From a virus (Duplodnaviria; Caudoviricetes), in IMG/VR virus record IMGVR_UViG_3300032081_000060, positions 1 to 32,042 of that record: a DNA stretch of 32,042 bases. The stretch is one strand, 5' to 3'. The notes beneath the pieces were generated by a model that saw only the letters and a program-made list of their open reading frames with translations, was not told the origin of the DNA and did no database searches. Positions 3,955 through 25,402 of the stretch are shown piece after piece. Position 1 is the stretch's first letter, and each line of letters starts with the position of its first letter. A program made the translations under genes and the position numbers.

Positions 3955-4464
3955 TTAAGCGTCAGCGAAAGGAGTAACAATCGTTCCAGAGCCTAGCAAT
4001 AACGTGTTGTGTACCAAATAAGTAGCAGCGTCGATAGCAGTTACCTGAACAACACTACCCACAAGACCGCCTTTTGTGGATCCGTTTAGGGTCATAACAT
4101 CGTTAGATGCCGCAGGAATAAATGCTTTCTTCGCGCCGTCATCTACAGCGACGATTACAGCGCCCTTGAACTTATCAGTGCCGTCAGTCTTGATGTCAAG
4201 ATCGGTTGCTGCGGTTTCTACATAAAAGTAGAAAGAAGCGCCAATGTTATTTTCTTGATCAGGTGAGGTCGGATCGGTTGGTGTTACTGAAGAAATTGCA
4301 GGCAAAGTAAACTTGCCGTCAGCATCGTTTAATAAAATAATTTTACCAGCGTGAGCTGCAACGGTTAGTGTGGTGTCAGCAGATAAGCTAACACTGCTGT
4401 TTACACCGGCAGTAATAAAACCAGCTAAAGATTTAACGGGTCCAGAAAAAGTAGTTTGCGCCAT
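3955..4464 (-). CDS. Putative virion structural protein (head fibre or decoration)
   Basis: Start MAQTTFSGPV at 4464 with RBS AGAGGTG at 4471-4477; A/T/G/V-rich; first gene after the major capsid gene. Confidence 0.75.
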   Translation of the reverse strand: MAQTTFSGPVKSLAGFITAGVNSSVSLSADTTLTVAAHAGKIILLNDADGKFTLPAISSVTPTDPTSPDQENNIGASFYFYVETAATDLDIKTDGTDKFKGAVIVAVDDGAKKAFIPAASNDVMTLNGSTKGGLVGSVVQVTAIDAATYLVHNTLLLGSGTIVTPFADA

Positions 4465-4470
4465 TATATT

Positions 4471-4548
4471 CACCTCTTACGAAAGGATTCGCCCCATTGT
4501 CTTCGTAACGTCCGCTGAGCCGGTCAATAGGGCTAATTTATCTCAGGT
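4471..4548 (-). ncRNA. Candidate structured RNA leader (stem plus two pseudoknots) abutting an RBS
   Basis: Four complementary pairs within 78 nt: GCCCUAUUG/CAAUGGGGC, CCG/CGG, CUGAG/CUCAG, UUACGAA/UUCGUAA. Confidence 0.5.
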
Positions 4549-4626: not shown

Positions 4627-5544
4627 TTAAGCGCCTTGACTTCCGTAGATGCCTCGCCAATCGGAGAATCCGAAAGAATAACGCTCTCGCGCTTTGTATC
4701 GAATGTTTCCGGTGGTGAAGTCTGGTTCCATAGAGGTTTCCATCGCTGTGCGTTGGAACATCTTGAGACCTTCGCCTTGGTCTGTGACCGAAGTTAACAG
4801 GAAGAAAGCATCTGGGTCGTTCAGATAGTGGTTAACAGTGTAACCACCGGGCAGAACGCCAGTGTTTCGGATCGCGTTAACGTCATTGTCAGCAGTCCCA
4901 GATCGCTTCTCAGAATTCAAAATTCTGTCCGCAACAAATACCAACTGTGGAGGAACGACTAACTTAGTCGCCTGAACCGAAATGGTCAGTCCTCGGTCAT
5001 CAGTAAAGGTTGAGATATCAATCAAAGCGTCTTCGAGTGAAGTCTCGTTCAGGTCAGCCATCGTCGTAGCTCGGTTAGCAGCAGTGCCGCCACCAGCCAA
5101 AGGGTGAGAAGTGTTGATTAATGAAACACCGTCTCCGCCAGTAAAACTAGCAGAAAACGCATTGTTCAAAACATCAGCGCCTTTCACTTCCTTGGTGTTA
5201 GCCATTGATCGAGCCAGTGCTTTCACATATCGCTTACCGAGTGAGTCATACAAATTATCTTCGACTGCTTCATCGGTGAGCGCGAATGCCAAAGCAATCG
5301 TCTCGTGGGTGTAACGAGCTGAATAGCTTTCAGAAGCATTGTCAAAAACAACGCCTTGGCCTTCAGTCTTCGTGGGTGCTGAACCAAAACCAGTAATCAG
5401 AACCTCTTCTTCAAAAGCACGTTGAGAATCTTCGATTGCGTAGATCTCTTCGTACTCGCGGTCGTAGCTGTCATAGCTCATACCAAAGAGGCTGTTAAGG
5501 CCCGGCTCTAGCTCTTTCGCTAGTTGTGCGCGTGAAATTGCCAT
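4627..5544 (-). CDS. Major capsid protein
   Basis: 305 aa, MAISRAQLAKELEPGLN...RYKARERYSFGFSDWRGIYGSQGA; follows scaffold-like genes and precedes a strong terminator. Confidence 0.9.
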   Translation of the reverse strand: MAISRAQLAKELEPGLNSLFGMSYDSYDREYEEIYAIEDSQRAFEEEVLITGFGSAPTKTEGQGVVFDNASESYSARYTHETIALAFALTDEAVEDNLYDSLGKRYVKALARSMANTKEVKGADVLNNAFSASFTGGDGVSLINTSHPLAGGGTAANRATTMADLNETSLEDALIDISTFTDDRGLTISVQATKLVVPPQLVFVADRILNSEKRSGTADNDVNAIRNTGVLPGGYTVNHYLNDPDAFFLLTSVTDQGEGLKMFQRTAMETSMEPDFTTGNIRYKARERYSFGFSDWRGIYGSQGA

Positions 5545-14669: not shown

Positions 14670-14915
14670 CTAAGAAGCGGTGTAGCCATTACCTGCGCTG
14701 ATAGCTGCATTGACTGCGGTCATGTCTTCATCGCCCCAGTCATCTTTAGCAACCATAAGCTCAAGGTGCTCAGTGTTGCGGTCAACACAGTCTTGACGGT
14801 CTGCGGCATCATCATCAGCCATTTGTTCGCCAGCGATAATCGCGTTGATTAGGTCTACACTGTGGCCCATAGCCGTGTAGTCCTGTGCTAGTTGTTCGGT
14901 AGTACGGTCTTCCAT
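14670..14915 (-). CDS. Small acidic protein after the tail fibre
   Basis: 81 aa, AGGAG RBS. Confidence 0.7.
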   Translation of the reverse strand: MEDRTTEQLAQDYTAMGHSVDLINAIIAGEQMADDDAADRQDCVDRNTEHLELMVAKDDWGDEDMTAVNAAISAGNGYTAS

Positions 14916-14928
14916 TGTTTATCTCCTG

Positions 14929-17900
14929 TCAGGATTCTAGTGCCTCAATACGGGCGGTTAGTGCTGCGTTTTGTGCAGATAGTTCTTGGATGGCTTTGAC
15001 AAGAACGGGAATCAAGGCAGCTTCCGCTACTTCTTGTGAACCATCATCTCTTTCGTCCCAAAGTTTAAAGCCGTCTTTAATACTGTCATCTGCATCTATA
15101 GCTGCTTTAACTTCTTGGGCTATAAAGCCGTGTTGAGTTTGCGAGCTTTTAAAGGCTTCGGTTGAGCCTTCTTCGTAAGCCCTAAAAGATTCAGGCAATT
15201 CGCCTTTGTTTTTGTAGTTAAAGGTTCTGGGACGCAATGCGTTAATTAATGACAAGCCAGCTTCAGAATCTACAATGTCTTTCTTGTAACGTTCATCAGA
15301 TACAGTTGCCCATGTTACATTACCGTGTGCAGCTCTGATGTCGTCAGTGCCTGAGCCAAGAGTTGTATATCCTGCCGCTCCTGCAACATTATATCCTAAG
15401 ACCATTGCTCCATCTGCATCAGCCGCAGTAGCTCTTGAGTATGCACCTACTATTACGTTTCTTAAGCCTGTAGTATTTAGGACGTTATAATTAGCCGCGG
15501 CAAAACCCAGAAACGTGTTGCTGTGACCTGTAGTAGTGTCGCCACCTGCATGTTGCCCCACCATTGTGTTGCTGTGGCCTGTAGTGTTATCTTCACCAGC
15601 AAGACCACCAATGAGGGTGTTGTTAACGCCTGTGGTTACTCGTTTTCCTGCTTGGTCTCCTACTGCTGTATTGTAAGCATTTGTAGCTGACGTAAAGTTT
15701 TGAGTGCTAAGAGCCTCATTACCTATTGCAACAGAGGCACTTCCTTGTGTGTCCGTTGTTAGCGCTGCATAACCTAACGCTACGTTGTGGGTTCCTGTAG
15801 TAAGTGCATCCGCTGCTAGACCACCAATGATGGTATTTTGAACGCCTGTGGTTATATCATTACCTGCGGAGTACCCAACTGCTACATTGTACGTATCAGT
15901 GGCTGAGGTGAAGTTCTGCGCGGATAAGGTGGCAGTACCAATTGCTACACTTCTGCTTCCTAAAGTATCTGAAGCTAAAGCACTAACTCCTACAGCGACA
16001 TTGTAATCAGCATCAGTTAAAGCATCTCCCGCAACCCCACCTATGAGCGTATTTTGAATGCCGGTAGTGACTGATAACCCAGCACTAGTACCTACGGCAG
16101 TGTTATAACTTCCCGTAGTATGCTCAAACAAAGCGCGATACCCGATTCCAACACTACTTGTCCCAGTGGTATTATCGTAAAGCGCCTGATAACCTATTGC
16201 TATGTTGTTACTAGCGGTAGTGTTTGCCCTTAGAGCGTTTTGACCTAATGCGGTATTGCCAGCACCTGTTGTGTTTGAGCCTAAAGCACTTAAACCAACG
16301 GCTGTATTGTTAGCTGCTGTTGTGTTGGCGGCTAAGGAACTATCGCCTAAAGCTGTGTTGTATGAGCCTGTAGTATTAGATGCTAAAGCGCCTTGCCCGA
16401 AGGCAACATTCTGTGCGCCTGTGGTAATAGCGCCGCCTGCATTTACGCCTACTAAACTATTGTAAGAGCCAGTAGTAATCGCATCACCAGCAAGACCACC
16501 GATGAGGGTGTTTTGAACGCCTGTGGTTACATACCTACCTGCTTGCGATCCTACTGCTGTGTTGTAGGCATTAGCCGAACTGCTTTGATTTTGATTTTGC
16601 AATGCCCCCCAACCGACTGCAACGGACTGCTCGCCTTTTGTCTCAGTGCTAAGAGCTAAGTAACCGACTGCTACGTTTGCGGAGGCGGTGTTAACGGCAT
16701 CACCTGCAAGACCACCGATGATTGTATTTTGAACGCCTGTGGTTACTGCTTCACCAGCAGCATGTCCCACTGCAACATTGTAGGTTTCAACGGCGCTAGT
16801 GTTGGCCTGAAAGCGCAACGCAGAAAAACCAACGGCAACGCTTCTACTGCCTAAAGTGTCCGTGGTTAAAGCTTGGTATCCGACTGCAACATTGGCATCA
16901 GCATCAGTAAGCGCATCCCCTGCAAGACCACCGATGAGCGTATTTTGAACGCCGGTGGTGACTGCGGCTCCTGCGGCGTGACCAACTGCCACATTGTAAG
17001 TATCAGTCGCCGAAGTAAAGTTTTGAACATTAAGAGCAGAATCACCTATTGCAACGCTCTTGCTTCCCAAAGTATCGCTAGTTAAGGCTGCTCTCCCAAT
17101 AGCTACGTTATTGTCAGCATCTGTAAGAGCATCACCAGCTAGACCGCCTATGAGCGTATTGTGAATGCCTGTGGTGACTGATGTGCCTGCTTGTGAGCCA
17201 ACAGCCGTATTGTAAGCATCAGTAGCTGACGTGAAGTTTTGACTACGTAGAGCAAAATCACCAAGAGCTACGCTATGGCTTCCTTGTGTATCAGAACTTA
17301 ACGAACCATTACCTACAGCTACATTCTGATTGCCCACAGTAAGAGCATCACCTGAAACTGACCCTATGAGAGTATTTTTAATGCCCGTGGTTACTGATAG
17401 CCCTGCATGATAACCCACGGCAGTATGGTTAGTACCTGTGGTGTTTGCGGTTAAAGCACCTGTACCAACTGCTGTATTATTACTTGCAGTATTTGCAAAT
17501 AAAGCACCTTTTCCAAGTGCTGTATTATCAGCACCTGTAATGTTTGATGACAAAGCTGCATAACCTAAAGCAGTATTTTGAGATGCTGTAGTGTTAGCAT
17601 CAAGGGCTAAAGAACCTACTGCTACATTATATTGACCTGTGGTGTTTACATTTAAAGCTGACCTACCAACTGCTGTGTTGTAAGATGCTGTGGTGTTAAA
17701 TGCTAAAGCCCTATTACCTATCGCCACATTATTAGAACCTGTAGTATTATCAAATAGTGCATGATAGCCTACAGCATCATTATCTACACCTGTGGTGTTG
17801 TTACCTAAAGCTCCACCACCAAAAGCGTTATTTTCGTCCCCTGTTGTGTTGTCTGCTAAAGCTTGATAACCAACTGCTGTGTTGTTAGATGCAGTTGTAT

Positions 17901-19329
17901 TAGCCCTCAAGGCATCTTTACCAATTCCTGTATTGTTAGCACCTGTTGTATTAGTTAATAATGAACCACTGCCAAAAGCAGAATTATTAGATGCTGTCGT
18001 AGTATTTGCTGCTGCACCATCACCAACTGCTGTGTTAAAAGAACCTGTAGTTAAATCAGTAAGCGATTCGCTACCAACAGCAACATTATAGTTACCTGTG
18101 GTAAGTGCATCTAAAGAAATTCTACCTACAGCTACGTTAGCAGAACCTTCAGTATTTGCTGTTAAGGCATTAGCACCTACTGCTACGTTATATTGACCTG
18201 TGGTGTTTGCAGTAAGCGCGGAAGAACCAATCGCTACGTTTGCCCCGCCACTTAACGATCCGTCATCCAGTGCCTGATTACCCAGCGCAACGTTGTTTGC
18301 ACCAACAGGGTAGTTCCCATCCAGCTTAATTGATCCGCTGTCTACTGAAAATTCACCAGCTACGGTAAGCCCGTCTGTGACAGCAGTTCCCGTTACGTCG
18401 ATGCCTGTGGCTGTGGTGGCTAGTTTTTGGTTATTGTTGTGATACAGCTTGACATCATCGTCGTCATTAAAAACGGCAAAAACTTCGTTAAAACCTCTGT
18501 CCGCAAAGATAATCCTGTCATCGGACTCCATGCGAATTTCGCCAGTGGCGTTGCCGTTACGAATTAAGCCATCTGTGCCGTTGCTTAAAATCTCAAGGTC
18601 AGAGCCAGCGCCGAAGATGGCTTTGGCATTGTCAGGCATAGTGATGCCGTTAGTATGGACAGTAGCGGCAGTTGTAGTCAGTACGCCTGTGACAAGCGCA
18701 GTACCTGACACATCAAGGTTGCCATTCAAGTCAACTGTAGTCGCAGCAATTTGAATTTCAGTGTCTGCAACGAGATCTAACTGACCGTCTGCGCTTGAGT
18801 TGATGTAGATCGCTGAGTCGCGGAACTGAATCTTTTGGTCGGTGGTGGTCGTATTGCCAGCCGTTAAAACCTCAGCCAACGTATCCGTCACACCGGGATC
18901 AACAAGCGCCATCGCGTCAACAACTGCGGCACCAGCCCCTGCTCCGTCGAGATAAACAACCGCCGTCTTGCCCGTGGCAATTGTGACGTTCGCGCCTGAG
19001 CCTTGAGAAATTGCAATCGATTGAGAACCAGATGTTGCGTTCTCGATGAACATGACGCGGGAAAGGGTGTTTGGTGCAATCGTTAACGTGCGGGTCGTTG
19101 TCAGACTTACCGCTGAAGTAATCTTGTAATACATTGCTCGCGCTGGGTCTGATACCCCATCGGCAACCGTGGTCGTTGCGTCAGCATCGCTGCCAAAAGC
19201 TTGCTGAGTCGCGTAACCTAACGCCTCGCCGATTAGCTCTAAGTTAGTATTGGTGGTTGTACCCCAAGTACCGGAGCCTTCCCCAGTCGCAAGTTCTGTC
19301 AATCTTAAATCGTTAACGTAGGTTGCCAT
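14929..19329 (-). CDS. Long tail fibre with beta-repeat shaft and C-terminal peptidase S74 intramolecular chaperone
   Basis: N-terminal anchor GEGSGTWGTTTNTNL; dozens of N-x-A-V-G-x-x-A-L-x-x-N-T-T-G repeats; SDERYKKDI...HGFIAQEV...LVKAIQEL. Confidence 0.9.
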   Translation of the reverse strand: MATYVNDLRLTELATGEGSGTWGTTTNTNLELIGEALGYATQQAFGSDADATTTVADGVSDPARAMYYKITSAVSLTTTRTLTIAPNTLSRVMFIENATSGSQSIAISQGSGANVTIATGKTAVVYLDGAGAGAAVVDAMALVDPGVTDTLAEVLTAGNTTTTDQKIQFRDSAIYINSSADGQLDLVADTEIQIAATTVDLNGNLDVSGTALVTGVLTTTAATVHTNGITMPDNAKAIFGAGSDLEILSNGTDGLIRNGNATGEIRMESDDRIIFADRGFNEVFAVFNDDDDVKLYHNNNQKLATTATGIDVTGTAVTDGLTVAGEFSVDSGSIKLDGNYPVGANNVALGNQALDDGSLSGGANVAIGSSALTANTTGQYNVAVGANALTANTEGSANVAVGRISLDALTTGNYNVAVGSESLTDLTTGSFNTAVGDGAAANTTTASNNSAFGSGSLLTNTTGANNTGIGKDALRANTTASNNTAVGYQALADNTTGDENNAFGGGALGNNTTGVDNDAVGYHALFDNTTGSNNVAIGNRALAFNTTASYNTAVGRSALNVNTTGQYNVAVGSLALDANTTASQNTALGYAALSSNITGADNTALGKGALFANTASNNTAVGTGALTANTTGTNHTAVGYHAGLSVTTGIKNTLIGSVSGDALTVGNQNVAVGNGSLSSDTQGSHSVALGDFALRSQNFTSATDAYNTAVGSQAGTSVTTGIHNTLIGGLAGDALTDADNNVAIGRAALTSDTLGSKSVAIGDSALNVQNFTSATDTYNVAVGHAAGAAVTTGVQNTLIGGLAGDALTDADANVAVGYQALTTDTLGSRSVAVGFSALRFQANTSAVETYNVAVGHAAGEAVTTGVQNTIIGGLAGDAVNTASANVAVGYLALSTETKGEQSVAVGWGALQNQNQSSSANAYNTAVGSQAGRYVTTGVQNTLIGGLAGDAITTGSYNSLVGVNAGGAITTGAQNVAFGQGALASNTTGSYNTALGDSSLAANTTAANNTAVGLSALGSNTTGAGNTALGQNALRANTTASNNIAIGYQALYDNTTGTSSVGIGYRALFEHTTGSYNTAVGTSAGLSVTTGIQNTLIGGVAGDALTDADYNVAVGVSALASDTLGSRSVAIGTATLSAQNFTSATDTYNVAVGYSAGNDITTGVQNTIIGGLAADALTTGTHNVALGYAALTTDTQGSASVAIGNEALSTQNFTSATNAYNTAVGDQAGKRVTTGVNNTLIGGLAGEDNTTGHSNTMVGQHAGGDTTTGHSNTFLGFAAANYNVLNTTGLRNVIVGAYSRATAADADGAMVLGYNVAGAAGYTTLGSGTDDIRAAHGNVTWATVSDERYKKDIVDSEAGLSLINALRPRTFNYKNKGELPESFRAYEEGSTEAFKSSQTQHGFIAQEVKAAIDADDSIKDGFKLWDERDDGSQEVAEAALIPVLVKAIQELSAQNAALTARIEALES
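15596..17400. repeat. 216-bp (72-aa) coding repeat array in the tail fibre
   Basis: Related ~45-bp cores (CCxGCAAGACCACCGATGAG...TGAACGCCTGTGGTTAC) at 15596, 15812, 16028 and at 16487, 16703, 16919, 17135, 17351. Confidence 0.85.
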
Positions 19330-20228: not shown

Positions 20229-20257
20229 ATCTTAATCCTTTATGCTGCGCTTGATAA
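20229..20257 (-). promoter_or_regulatory. Possible sigma70-type promoter for the tail/lysis/head operon
   Basis: TTATCA-17 bp-TAAGAT upstream of the 20206 RBS. Confidence 0.3.
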
Positions 20258-21028
20258 GCCTTGATATTTACGATCTAAAATACGCCGAACCTTGGTCCCG
20301 TACATATTCTGACCCTTGTACAAGCTATTGATCTGCTTGGCGATACTGTTTGGAGCAAGACCTCGGGCGCGGAGGCGATGAATCGACTTCAGCACCTTTT
20401 GCTCTTCTGGATGCTCAACCAAGCGCTTGCGCGTCTTGTTACCAATCTTCACAGGTTCGGCAATATATCCGAACGGGACGGATCCACCGATAAAGAATCC
20501 GCGAGCCGCCCAATCGACCTTACCCTCGCCAAATCGATCCTTGATGTTGGCATGCTCAATCTCAGCAACCGCTGATAATACCATCAGCATGATCTTGTTT
20601 GCCATGTCGGACATATCAAACCGCGACTTCAAACCCTTCTCGTCTGCAAATTTAGGGTAAACAATCGGCATATCTCCGAACTGCTCACAGAAAAACAACG
20701 TGATGTTGGTCTCTTGCAGAACCGGAATCATCGATAGTAAATCGGAAGTTGATCGAGACAATCTATCAAGTCGAGTGCAGACAATAACGTCAGATTCGTC
20801 CATCACATCAGTCATGGCGCGAGATCCGGGGCGCTCAAGAATATCGACTGTGCCGCTTACGCCATCGTCAATAAACCACTTATCGACCGGGCGATTGTAT
20901 TTATTCTTAACGAACTCGCTGATCAAAGACTGCTGGGTCTCGATAGAAACGCCAGACTTCGACTGCTCTTTGGTTGATACCCGGCAATAGCCATAAATCA
21001 TGTTGATCTGGGTGATAGGTCTAATCAC
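20240..21028 (-). CDS. Serine recombinase (resolvase/invertase family)
   Basis: YGYCRVST (catalytic Ser), DDGVSG, RLDRLSR, AEIEHANIKDR, GGSVPFGY and a short C-terminal HTH-like region. Confidence 0.9.
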   Translation of the reverse strand: MIRPITQINMIYGYCRVSTKEQSKSGVSIETQQSLISEFVKNKYNRPVDKWFIDDGVSGTVDILERPGSRAMTDVMDESDVIVCTRLDRLSRSTSDLLSMIPVLQETNITLFFCEQFGDMPIVYPKFADEKGLKSRFDMSDMANKIMLMVLSAVAEIEHANIKDRFGEGKVDWAARGFFIGGSVPFGYIAEPVKIGNKTRKRLVEHPEEQKVLKSIHRLRARGLAPNSIAKQINSLYKGQNMYGTKVRRILDRKYQGLSSAA

Positions 21029-21628: not shown

Positions 21629-21800
21629 GCTGGAAGAGTACCACCACGATGGCAAGATCGGCGCTTTCATCAAGACCCGGCAGTGCGGAGAAGAACTCTT
21701 TGACGAAGTTATTGAACCACGGATCAGAAAGTTAGAAGACAACGGCGCTTACTTCCACCTATACCGCAAGTGCGGGGATCTGCGGGAGGTTATTCTCTAA
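21612..21800 (+). CDS. Small hypothetical protein (62 aa)
   Basis: GGAG upstream; converges on the stop of the 1201-aa gene. Confidence 0.6.
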   Translation: MNDMYELEEYHHDGKIGAFIKTRQCGEELFDEVIEPRIRKLEDNGAYFHLYRKCGDLREVIL

Positions 21801-24800
21801 AGAACCACATCAGAGGCACTAATCGCCGCTTCTTGCTCTCGTTCTGGCAGTTTATTAAACAACATTTCTGCAAGCTGATAAGCAGGAATGCCAAGCTTCT
21901 GAGCAATGAGCGGCAACATATTCAAACCGCGCTCGTCCATAATCGGGCCTTCCATCGCATATTCTGCAATCGGAGCAATCGTCTCTCCAATACCCTGCAT
22001 GATCTCTTGGCCGACCACTTGGGCCTCTGGGCCAGCATCGTACAAACCACCAACAAAATCAGAAACACCCTCGCGAGTATCTCGAATACTCTCAGCAGTT
22101 GCGGGTACGGGAGATCTAAACCCTCTCAGGTACTCACCAACTCCCGCTGCCCCGCCAAGTATCGCGCCGCCAATTTCGCTCAAAGCTCCTAAGCCTAGCT
22201 GGCCTGCTAGGGATGCTACGCCGGGAGATTCTTTCTTGGGAGCAGCTTTGTAGGCAACGTCATCCGGCATTCTTCTTGATTTTACGCCCAAGCCGCCTGC
22301 TTCTGCGTCTTCTGAAGAAAGAACTGCTGTGGCTCCTAAGCCTGTGATCCCTGCGCCAAGAGCTTTAGGGGACTTGTCATTAAATCCTAGTCCGTCAAGT
22401 CCTTCTGATTTTTTTCTTCCTTTTGAATCTGGAGCTTTATATTTTCTATAGTACGGAAGAGACTGACCCTCCCACTGGCGGAACCTCTCCTGCGCCGGTT
22501 TGAAGCCGTAAAACTCTTGTCTGAGAGCGTCAGGATCTCTAGCTGCCTTTCCATATTGTCCAAGGTAGTCTTGAGTGTCTGCAAGCGACTTGACGTTAAC
22601 GTCAAAATAGGCTGGCGTGGCTGCTTTAACCTGTCCGAACTCTTCCTCAAGATTTCTTCCGAGCGTTTCAAATTGTCCATAAGATCTCTCTACCGTGTCT
22701 TTGTACTCATCTGTAGACATTGTAGCATACTTTTTAGAATCTCCACTAAACTGAGGAATATCTAAAACTCTTAACCCAATAACGCTATTCGCATTTCTCG
22801 GGTCAACGATCATTGTGTAGGCAGGGACATCGTTTTTTATCAAGTAATCGCTGATATCTTGAATCAAGTCTGAGTCAGCACGCTTTGGTCCGTCAAAAAA
22901 TATTTCAGAACCTACCGTGAACATTTCTGGTTTTGATGCGCCTAAATCATCTTTAATCCTTCTCGCAACAAACCATGAGTCTTGGGCATCTTCTGCCGCT
23001 TGAACCGCCGCTAAATCAAGCGTCTCTACTGGTATAAAGTCTCGCTTGCTAACGATATCGATGTCCAAGGCGGTTTCCGGGCTTCCCAAGTAAGCACCGC
23101 TGGTAGGTAGTCCTTTGTAGGTAACCACATCAGGGTCTGTGTTAGCCGGTCTTAAAATGTTCGACATACTCTCAAGCATCTGACCAGAGGACGGCACAAA
23201 ATCTTTACCTTGAGTATCCATGCTTTGTTCTCGGCTAAGACCGAGAAACATTGACTCAACAGGGTCGGCATCAAGCATCTGCTCAAAAGAACCTCCTTCG
23301 CCTGCCTTCGAGGTCCACCCTTTTTTTGTCCAAAGGTCTTTTTCAGCAAACCACTGAAGCGCCTGAACATCCCTTGGCTCAAGCGGGTAAAGAGGACTAT
23401 TAGGATCAAGGAACTGATTAATTTTGTCAGTAGCATCCCTAATAACAGCTTGACCAAAACCAAATTCTAAATTGCTAACAAAATTGTCAGGATCAACGAC
23501 CTTGCCCGTAACGCCTTGTTCCGCAGAAGATGGTATAGGTTTTCTTCCGCTATGCTTCCTAAGGTTTCGCGCAGACCAAACGTCGATAGTTGCCTCTTGG
23601 CTGTCACCAACCAAGTTTCCTGCGAAATTTTTTGCCTTAGGGGCGCTGCCAGCTCTTCTGATTCTAAACTTGTCAGCCAAAGCAACCATGGCGTTGTAAG
23701 AATTAATGCCAAATTGTTTACCGTTTCGCTGCCTAATAATGTTCCTCTGGTCCCGCAGCTCTTCCCCGATTTTTTTAGATTCATTGATCAAGGCTGTGTA
23801 ATTGGGGTCTGCTTTGATATCTTTTACTTTTCGACCAGTTGCTCTTTCGGCTTTTAAAAATGCCTCAGCTTGGTCTTCCAGCGCATAACGAGCGTCAAGG
23901 GAGTCGGCGAAACCCTCCATAAGCTCGTCAAATTCGCCCCGAGCGAAGCCGTCGAGTATGTCTTTCGTGAATCTAAAATTAGTTGCCACAGGTGTGTTAG
24001 GACTGGTAGCGCCAAGCAGATCGCCTACCATTTCAGAAAAAGAACCATACTCGTTACGCAAGCGTCTTTCGACGTTTTTATACCAACCGGCGTTGTTGAT
24101 TACGTTTCTTGCGGCCAAGTCATCGGGGTTCTCAGCCCTTTTAAAATAATCGATAATCTCGTCAGCAACACCATCAGATATTTTCTTAAACTGGGCTGAA
24201 CCCGGCTCAACCTGCTTTCCTGTCTTCGGGTCGATATTGTAAGCATAAGGCATCGCCTTAAACTTTAGCTCAACCTTGTTGTCTTCAGTCAGGTTTGCGC
24301 CAGTGATTTTAGGCTGCGCCCAGTCTGCGTTCGGATGTCTTTTCTTCCAGTCACGAGCGACATTCATTGCCAACTCTGAGTCGCCGCCCAACAAAGATTC
24401 TTCAATTGCGGCCTTTTCTTGAGGTGAAAGAGAAGCCCTCTTCGCCATATTCCTAGTGCCGCGATTAAATTGAGCAGGGGCTTTCTCGGCAAGATCAACC
24501 CCCTCCCTTGCTATTTTTAAACCAAGATCATACATCCCGGCTTCGGCATCTTCGCTTTGAATCATCATGTAAGCGGCAGGAATAGAAATACCGTATTTTT
24601 TGCTGATTTCTATGATCCGAGGGTCAAATACAACGTAATTATTAGAGCGTTTGTCCTTCGGCTTGTGCCGGGTGAATGCGTCAGCGTACTTGATCCCCTT
24701 AACCCCTAAATCTTCCAGCGCCTCAGCCGCATACTCTTGACCGTCCTGCTCAAGCCAACGAACCAGATCAGCGCCGGTAGGGTTCTCGCCCCTAGCGCCT

Positions 24801-25402
24801 GCAATATCGTAAACACCCTCTTCAGCATACGGCCACCAATCAGCGCTCTTGAGCTTGTCCATGACCTTCTTCGGCTGCTCATCGATTAACTCGTCCCACT
24901 CGATAAGCTCATCAGGATCGGCGTCGATGTTGACTTTGTACATGCGGCCAGTAACTTCTCCTGACGGTATTACTTTGCCATCTTGAGTAATTAAGTAACC
25001 AGATCCGTCTGAAAATTCGTACCTTACGTTTCCATTAACATCCGCTGAGGTTTCCACAGCGTCATCAGAAATCGTCTCAATAACGTCATCCAAGGTGGTG
25101 TTGTTAAAGTTTTCGTATCCAGAAAGCCCATACTCTTGCTCATAGCTGTTGGCGATGCTGTCCTCGGGGGCAGGCGTTGTCCCATCCTTTCTGAGCTTAG
25201 TTAAAGAATCTCGGTAACCCCTAGCAACATCCTCAGACTCAGCAAAATACAAGCCCTGACCATAAGCCTGAGCGCCTTCGCCAGTTCCGATAGCTTCGGT
25301 TTTAAACTCATCAAAGTCGTAGGGGGAACCATGGTAAGCCTCGATACCGGCTTTTCGACCGCTGTCAATAATTGCCTTTAAGATTTCGCCCTTAGCGCTC
25401 AT
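21797..25402 (-). CDS. Large polyvalent-type protein: ADP-ribosyltransferase-like domain, HhH-glycosylase-like domain, unknown domain and Gly-rich tail
   Basis: AYHGSPYDFDEF...GQGLYFAE...YKVNI...GVKGIKY...NYVVFD; WY...ATSPNTPV..N...PKAKNFAGNL...TIDVWSAR...PRDVQALQW; hydrophobic Gly-rich C-terminal helices. Confidence 0.7.
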   Translation of the reverse strand: MSAKGEILKAIIDSGRKAGIEAYHGSPYDFDEFKTEAIGTGEGAQAYGQGLYFAESEDVARGYRDSLTKLRKDGTTPAPEDSIANSYEQEYGLSGYENFNNTTLDDVIETISDDAVETSADVNGNVRYEFSDGSGYLITQDGKVIPSGEVTGRMYKVNIDADPDELIEWDELIDEQPKKVMDKLKSADWWPYAEEGVYDIAGARGENPTGADLVRWLEQDGQEYAAEALEDLGVKGIKYADAFTRHKPKDKRSNNYVVFDPRIIEISKKYGISIPAAYMMIQSEDAEAGMYDLGLKIAREGVDLAEKAPAQFNRGTRNMAKRASLSPQEKAAIEESLLGGDSELAMNVARDWKKRHPNADWAQPKITGANLTEDNKVELKFKAMPYAYNIDPKTGKQVEPGSAQFKKISDGVADEIIDYFKRAENPDDLAARNVINNAGWYKNVERRLRNEYGSFSEMVGDLLGATSPNTPVATNFRFTKDILDGFARGEFDELMEGFADSLDARYALEDQAEAFLKAERATGRKVKDIKADPNYTALINESKKIGEELRDQRNIIRQRNGKQFGINSYNAMVALADKFRIRRAGSAPKAKNFAGNLVGDSQEATIDVWSARNLRKHSGRKPIPSSAEQGVTGKVVDPDNFVSNLEFGFGQAVIRDATDKINQFLDPNSPLYPLEPRDVQALQWFAEKDLWTKKGWTSKAGEGGSFEQMLDADPVESMFLGLSREQSMDTQGKDFVPSSGQMLESMSNILRPANTDPDVVTYKGLPTSGAYLGSPETALDIDIVSKRDFIPVETLDLAAVQAAEDAQDSWFVARRIKDDLGASKPEMFTVGSEIFFDGPKRADSDLIQDISDYLIKNDVPAYTMIVDPRNANSVIGLRVLDIPQFSGDSKKYATMSTDEYKDTVERSYGQFETLGRNLEEEFGQVKAATPAYFDVNVKSLADTQDYLGQYGKAARDPDALRQEFYGFKPAQERFRQWEGQSLPYYRKYKAPDSKGRKKSEGLDGLGFNDKSPKALGAGITGLGATAVLSSEDAEAGGLGVKSRRMPDDVAYKAAPKKESPGVASLAGQLGLGALSEIGGAILGGAAGVGEYLRGFRSPVPATAESIRDTREGVSDFVGGLYDAGPEAQVVGQEIMQGIGETIAPIAEYAMEGPIMDERGLNMLPLIAQKLGIPAYQLAEMLFNKLPEREQEAAISASDVVL

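Follow-up and report, generated by a model that had tools for sequence, protein, structure and literature searches.

The window analysed here is a 32,042-nt stretch of viral DNA (IMG/VR record IMGVR_UViG_3300032081_000060, Caudoviricetes), in which a short segment of the minus strand (4471-4548), situated between the capsid gene and the next gene, can form four interlocking pairings. This locus raises the questions of whether such a fold is real, which gene it serves and what might recognize it. The original prediction had taken the pairings as signs of a selected fold and had offered three possible roles: a translational switch, a ribozyme/processing element and a small structural RNA.

Among the genes of the window are a terminase, a portal, a GroES-like gene and, on the minus strand, a major capsid gene of 305 aa, which sequence searches assigned to the Mu-like gpT (Phage_capsid_4) type (4627-5544, minus). 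Its product is 57-64% identical to the capsid proteins of DSL-LC04, HTVC023P, HTVC027P and CRP-901/902, and the window was therefore taken to be an HTVC023P-type phage. An intrinsic-terminator-like hairpin followed by a T run lies 3' of the capsid gene (4603-4577, minus; the terminator scan listed the hairpin on the plus strand only), and a gene for a 169-aa protein starts at 4464 on the same strand. The element occupies the interval between the two, as had been proposed, with a Shine-Dalgarno (SD)-like GAGGUG at its 3' end (4476-4471).

All four pairings of the original prediction were found on the minus strand, in the strand order a b c a' c' d b' d'. Strand a (4546-4542) pairs with a' (4519-4515) over 5 bp to form the first pseudoknot. 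Helix b (4533-4525 with 4499-4491) constitutes arm 1 and contains 9 bp, one of them G-U; G4525 is also the G of the first junction strand. Invariant A4524 is followed by hairpin c (4523-4521 with 4514-4512, 3 bp), which forms arm 2, contains the invariant pair C4523-G4512 and holds a' in its loop; this segment (4524-4512) was defined by pairing, covariation and a search that specified no sequence. The next segment (4511-4500), defined in the same way, consists of invariant A4511, a lone invariant pair, C4510-G4501, which forms arm 3 and closes a loop containing strand d (4508-4502), and invariant A4500. This lone pair, which turns the fold into a three-way junction, had been overlooked. Strand d pairs with d' (4483-4477) over 7 bp to form the second pseudoknot; d' ends at the base before GAGGUG, so that the predicted contact with the SD is an abutment and not an overlap, and the ATG follows at 4464. 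A -10-like box, TAGAAT (4561-4556, minus), is present 9 nt 5' of strand a, at the predicted start of the leader; such boxes are enriched in relatives, although a sigma-70 promoter scan did not list this one.

With pseudoknots ignored, the single window sequence folded no better than its shuffles (z = -0.59). Because of this result, relatives were collected, and the evidence that goes beyond chance is comparative. The minimum-energy fold in the window also pairs the 5' flank with the SD; as a candidate switch arm this pairing was discarded, since it was unconserved (2/29, as compared to 23% with swapped partners).

Relatives were gathered with a narrow RNA pattern, which fitted 28 of 82 loci and at least 120 IMG/VR stretches, out of an estimated 770. 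So that such a pattern would not build in the answer, loci were also gathered by protein searches using the capsid protein, the downstream protein of the window and those of DSL-LC04 and HTVC023P, with the best 80 loci kept for each. Anchoring on the N-terminus of the downstream gene yielded 237 distinct leaders out of 394 loci, and 205 of these fitted a descriptor of the junction. After exclusion from the pseudoknot counts of four leaders that the descriptor had misparsed (L309, L310, L312 and L354), there remained 174 long forms, 101 of them protein-anchored and 73 derived from the RNA pattern, and 27 short forms.

Pseudoknot a, of at least 5 bp, was present in 173 of the 174 long leaders, as compared to 7% when partners were swapped and 6% when they were shuffled. 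The corresponding values for pseudoknot d were 157 of 174, 14% and 9%; in the other 17 long forms d was shorter than 5 bp. Similar results were obtained with the 101 protein-anchored leaders (a in 100 and d in 84, against 8% and 7% with swapped partners) and with 29 representatives at 80% identity (a in 29, d in 25). In a 30-row MAFFT alignment, 21 of 23 pairs showed changes on both sides, and pairing reached 87.5%, as compared to 30-41% after partners were slid along the sequence. The covariation score of this alignment was attained by none of 500 shuffles, a control that related rows can beat, and its d columns, at 66% pairing, are partly misaligned. C-U mismatches were frequent at two positions, b2 (63 of 174 leaders) and c3 (36 of 174). 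The cultured phages HTVC023P, HTVC027P and DSL-LC04 all carry the full form, and their sequences differ in all four helices. Thus, all four pairings exist and are maintained by selection, and both the swap test and the covariation across homologous leaders bear out the proposal of a selected fold.

While the helices vary freely in sequence, seven bases at the junction stay fixed. A descriptor that named no bases matched 110 of 163 protein-anchored leaders, and 108 of these matches had the identical junction bases A,C / G,A,C / G,A; the other two are consistent with the rate in shuffled sequences (22/489). In the window, these bases contribute to three G-A-C strands (4525-4523, 4512-4510 and 4501-4499, minus), in which every C is able to pair with the following strand's G and the three A residues stay unpaired. 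It is likely that the GAC strands form a three-way junction with pseudo-threefold symmetry. The pair C4510-G4501 was unchanged in all 174 long leaders, and because it is invariant we infer it without support from covariation. With the pseudoknots stacked on, the three arms are similar in length, with averages of 9.2, 8.3 and 6.8 bp. The first pair of helix b varies (G-C in 152, A-U in 19 and U-A in 3 of 174), so that one of the "GAC" strands is often AAC or GAU and the three arms are unequal.

Which gene the element serves can be judged from its position. The distance from the end of d' to the AUG was 9-14 nt in 156 of 167 leaders, and the leader stays near the start codon even where 0.5-1.5 kb separates it from the capsid gene, as in L029, L039, L041, L055, L063 and HTVC027P. 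When d' was compared with the best anti-SD duplex in 168 leaders, it overlapped this duplex in 101, lay within 2 nt of it in 63 and lay farther away in 4. At the 5' side, 102 of 173 leaders had a TAnnnT box at a distance of 4-11 nt from strand a, as compared to 30% in shuffled sequences; the -10-like box of the window, absent from the sigma-70 scan, is less well supported than the pairings. A terminator-like hairpin directly preceded strand a in 58 of the 173, with both features present in 8 and neither in 21. Because of the spacing to the start codon, the location of d' at the SD and the upstream box or terminator, we regard the element as the likely 5' leader of the downstream gene and not as the tail of the capsid gene. 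It lies in the leader of the gene that it would regulate, travels with that gene and overlaps or adjoins its ribosome-binding site, as expected for the translational-switch branch of the original prediction. Of 24 listed metatranscriptome runs, 4 gave contigs that overlap the region in part; strand, start and level are not readable from contigs. In several loci (L029, L036-L042, L049 and L055-L065), 0.5-1.5 kb of variable DNA is inserted between the capsid terminator and the leader, and in L014 (2960-3250) tandem repeats of about 36 nt come straight after the capsid terminator and before the leader.

The downstream gene (3955-4464, minus) encodes a 169-aa protein that consists of an N-terminal arm, approximately residues 1-15 with the motif TTFSGPV, and a predicted beta-sandwich body. 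Pfam, PHROGs and PDB sequence searches gave no name for it, and the ESM Atlas returned unnamed viral clusters as matches; the gene in this slot of DSL-LC04 is annotated in GenBank as a cement protein. Its structure was predicted with high confidence (mean pLDDT 90). Residues 16-158 matched the C-terminal knob of the capsid spike of phage Pa223 (9ny6_C, residues 195-294; Z 10.4, rmsd 2.3, 99 aligned residues, 13% identity), and Foldseek also linked the body to this spike (E 4.4e-5); baseplate and tailspike domains tie with the Pa223 knob within 1.1 Z. The Pa223 spike, gp52 (PDB 9NY6), is described as a homotrimer whose N-terminal residues anchor at threefold axes (bioRxiv 10.1101/2025.06.11.659172), and the cement proteins of Pam1, GP4 and A1002 are likewise described as trimers. 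These proteins share an N-terminal attachment part, a body and a location at threefold axes; the window protein resembles gp52 in the knob and lacks its triple beta-helix. The profile of a 150-aa sister family gave a weak match (E 1.1) to a 143-residue structural chain (PDB 26DE/44NY), which by entry and chain length is the trimeric cement protein of phage A1002; the match is a hint at most. From these matches, the downstream protein is predicted to be a trimeric capsid spike or cement protein.

The type of leader follows the N-terminal arm of this protein. The 211 downstream proteins of at least 135 aa fell into six BLAST clusters, and all six include genes with a GAC leader and the arm TTF(S/N)GP(V/I). 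Genes with this GP arm had the GAC core, in one form or another, in 221 of 223 leaders; 74 of these had been picked with the RNA pattern, and the remainder, by subtraction, gives 147 of 149. In contrast, genes with a different arm, THF(T/R/K)xGV, had the GAC core in 0 of 14 and 0 of 37 leaders. In the leaders of these THF-arm genes, a sequence-free search for three-way junctions had 54 best fits, and in 42 of them every linker was UG, with helices that vary; in the UG leaders, the SD and the AUG lie in separate hairpins. Rfam gave no match on the UG-leader loci that were scanned. One body family, with approximately 32% identity, has both types of arm and leader. Furthermore, GAC-long, GAC-short and UG leaders are all found with capsids that are 98.4-99.3% identical, and a 47-row capsid tree shows nine changes of leader type. 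Because six bodies share the GAC type, one body has both types and near-identical capsids differ, the RNA type tracks the arm and not the body or the capsid. The motif ranges over phages of SAR11, of Roseobacter and of a gammaproteobacterial host. UG leaders stand in the same slot before 236-aa THF-arm genes in L013 (2975-3050), L466 (430-515), L524 (430-515) and others, and in L399 (1110-1175) a GP-arm gene that is second in a tandem is preceded by a plain hairpin and has no GAC junction.

Rfam searches over 4471-4548 produced no match at the gathering threshold or up to E 10. The element nevertheless has known kin in the orphan motif Mu-gpT-DE (RF03012, 53 nt, Rfam type "Gene; sRNA"). In Rfam scans of two sets of 20 related loci, Mu-gpT-DE was the only family matched, in 3 and 1 loci, none of them carrying the long form, and it occupies the same genomic slot in sister phages. 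The window element lies in that slot, 3' of a Mu-like gpT capsid gene and directly before a start codon, and it contains the Mu-gpT-DE core, stem-A-(C...G hairpin)-AC-(7-9 nt)-GA-stem. The arm of the downstream protein is also common to the two, and the long form of DSL-LC04 and the Mu-gpT-DE copies of CRP-901/902 precede the same protein family. They differ in periphery. The outer helix of Mu-gpT-DE has 4-6 bp (CCUG/CAGG) and takes in the SD, and the motif has a long inner hairpin and a CCA in the joining segment. The window element lacks these features and has instead the 9-bp helix b with the SD outside it, the 3-bp hairpin c, strand d and two pseudoknots, and it did not reach the 49-bit gathering threshold of the Mu-gpT-DE model. 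A long-form model found one copy in the window, found long forms elsewhere and gave a single match, at E 0.068, among 23 short-form loci; its input included three of the four misparsed leaders (L309, L310, L312, L354), which were scored as long forms. The proposed kinship between the window form and Mu-gpT-DE therefore rests on the core and the slot, not on profile scores.

Other variants connect the two forms. None of the 27 short forms had an a of 5 bp or a d of 4 bp, while intermediates (L243 and L251) combine the CCA with the 5' pseudoknot. In circularly permuted forms, the third arm is open and the SD is in a hairpin loop. A search with a permuted pattern gave 90 distinct matches, 11 of them before arm genes; in all 11 the SD was in a hairpin of at least 3 bp, as compared to 9 of the 79 others. 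Permuted or minimal GAC junctions were found in L346, L360, L333, L370 (about 560-603) and L546-L664, with the SD in a hairpin loop and, in some of them, two lone C-G pairs; forms with two lone pairs could hardly fold by themselves. On a quick tree of one protein family (62 rows), the long, short and permuted forms are intermixed, with 14 changes from one to another, and in every form the SD is within a helix, in a hairpin loop or beside d'. Thus, the window element appears to be a larger, doubly pseudoknotted relative of Mu-gpT-DE, and Mu-gpT-DE itself would belong to the gene that follows it, as a leader, and not to the capsid gene. In the CaCoFold supplement, the rows for Mu-gpT-DE give counts and labels, a pseudoknot label among them, and "gpT" is absent from the main text of PMC5737381.

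Two unrelated threefold junctions thus stand before genes for predicted trimers, each linked to a particular arm, and from this arrangement we infer that the trimer may bind and repress its own leader. Our leading reading, held with somewhat less than even confidence, is that the leader is an autogenous translational operator to which the spike, as a trimer, would bind. A free spike trimer would bind its leader, with each subunit reading one GAC strand, probably via the N-terminal arm, whose other role would be docking on the capsid. The bound protein would stabilize the fold and keep d', or the hairpin that bears the SD, closed, so that the 30S subunit is blocked. As long as empty capsid sites soak up trimers, translation would continue; an excess of trimer would turn it off, and the supply of spikes would be matched to the number of capsids. 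The seven fixed core bases amid free helices, and the retention of this core in short and permuted forms, are consistent with such an operator. Several observations argue against it. The arm is encoded beside the leader, so linkage alone predicts that the two travel together, and no more than one or two residues of the arm are basic, which is unusual in an RNA-binding peptide. Moreover, the GAC strands are unequal, d' in the window adjoins the SD but does not overlap it, d falls below 5 bp in 17 of 174 long forms, L399 is an exception, and the long-form model barely detects the short form. The trimeric state, for its part, is drawn from fold likeness at 13% identity.

A more specific version, which we regard as possible but tentative, is that feedback is matched in symmetry: the trimeric spike would read the pseudo-threefold junction via its capsid-docking arm, and the RNA would mimic the threefold site on the capsid. 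There would then be at least two arm/RNA codes, GP with GAC and THF with UG, swapped as cassettes among near-identical capsids, and Mu-gpT-DE would be a form of the first.

The RNA evidence would fit any oligomeric binder, and the most conserved neighbour of the element is the capsid protein. An operator read by another protein, whether the major capsid protein, a scaffold, another phage regulator or a host factor, is nevertheless rather unlikely, as near-identical capsids go with all three types of leader, the type changes nine times on the capsid tree, and the motif spans phages of several hosts. We consider it unlikely, too, that the element is a constitutive structural leader, in which the pseudoknots bury the 5' end, shield the message from nucleases and fix the rate of translation with no ligand. 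The -10-like box (102/173) or terminator-like hairpin (58) would put strand a at or near the 5' end of the RNA; yet short and permuted forms keep the seven core bases in the absence of both pseudoknots (0/27 in short forms), and shielding requires helices, not fixed unpaired bases.

Unpaired invariant junction bases together with a pseudoknot at the SD are the usual anatomy of a riboswitch. A small molecule or metal ion could accordingly be imagined in the junction as a pocket, with d/d' as the expression platform, but this is an improbable explanation: the gene encodes a predicted virion part with no metabolic link, the minimal forms with two lone pairs leave little pocket, leader type tracks the protein arm, and no Rfam riboswitch or aptamer family was matched. 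A self-cleaving ribozyme, a processing element or a small RNA apart from the message is very improbable, in spite of the compact double pseudoknot and the Rfam type of Mu-gpT-DE, because no terminator separates the element from the start codon, d' keeps its distance of 9-14 nt to the AUG (156/167), a catalytic core is hard to reconcile with permutation and with reduction to lone pairs, and Rfam models of hammerhead, twister, pistol, hatchet and HDV-like ribozymes gave no match over the element up to E 10; these branches of the original prediction found no support. To our knowledge, the helix order of the element is also unlike the topologies of hammerhead, twister, pistol and HDV ribozymes.

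Returning to the autogenous operator, two phage systems are comparable in part. The scaffolding protein of P22 is a head protein that reportedly limits its own synthesis while unassembled; we know of no conserved threefold junction in that autoregulation, and the protein is a scaffold, not a surface spike. In T4, a pseudoknotted leader precedes gene 32 and is bound by the product of that gene, according to PMC10690425. That product is a single-strand-DNA-binding protein, whereas the window gene encodes a predicted virion surface protein and its RNA contains a threefold junction, and the two are likened here by description only. The accessible parts of the cited descriptions of the Pa223 spike and of the Pam1, GP4 and A1002 cement proteins make no mention of RNA binding. 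Literature searches returned no description of the long form, which supplements outside these searches could hold; the motif may be among the 8,495 IMG/VR candidates of PMC10690425.

With these results, the orphan Mu-gpT-DE can be assigned a gene and a core as well as a mechanism open to testing, and its family is widened to long, short and permuted forms. The family sits in one of the common phage groups of the ocean, with a single narrow pattern estimated to occur in about 770 IMG/VR stretches. Should the spike bind, this would be a clear case in which a virion surface protein counts itself against capsids by means of a symmetry-matched RNA, with two natural specificity codes. The cultured carriers HTVC023P, HTVC027P, DSL-LC04 and CRP-901/902 make the mechanism accessible to experiment.

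A genome scan gave 13 matches, of which 12 were attributed to chance and one was real: a long-form leader in L214 (510-597, minus), on a 9.5-kb contig in a Sneathiella metagenome-assembled genome, which is probably a binned phage fragment and is not evidence for the host. A blastn search of the intergenic region against annotated phages returned a 23-nt terminator match and nothing else. In Pag-Yong1, a GC-rich, self-complementary intergenic region precedes an annotated minor capsid gene (L302, 3403-3510); the long-form model did not match it. Within the window itself, a 22-nt match to the Mu-gpT-DE model at 14913-14934 (minus) was weak (17 bits, against the cut-off of 49) and is probably a mere ribosome-binding region. 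The gene at 14929-19329 (minus) encodes a fibre-like protein of 1466 aa whose C-terminus is an S74 chaperone domain. The window also contains a serine resolvase-like gene (20240-21028, minus) and, at 21797-25402 (minus), a gene for a 1201-aa protein whose N-terminus matched ART-PolyVal, an ADP-ribosyltransferase domain, at E 2e-6, under the Pfam cut-off.
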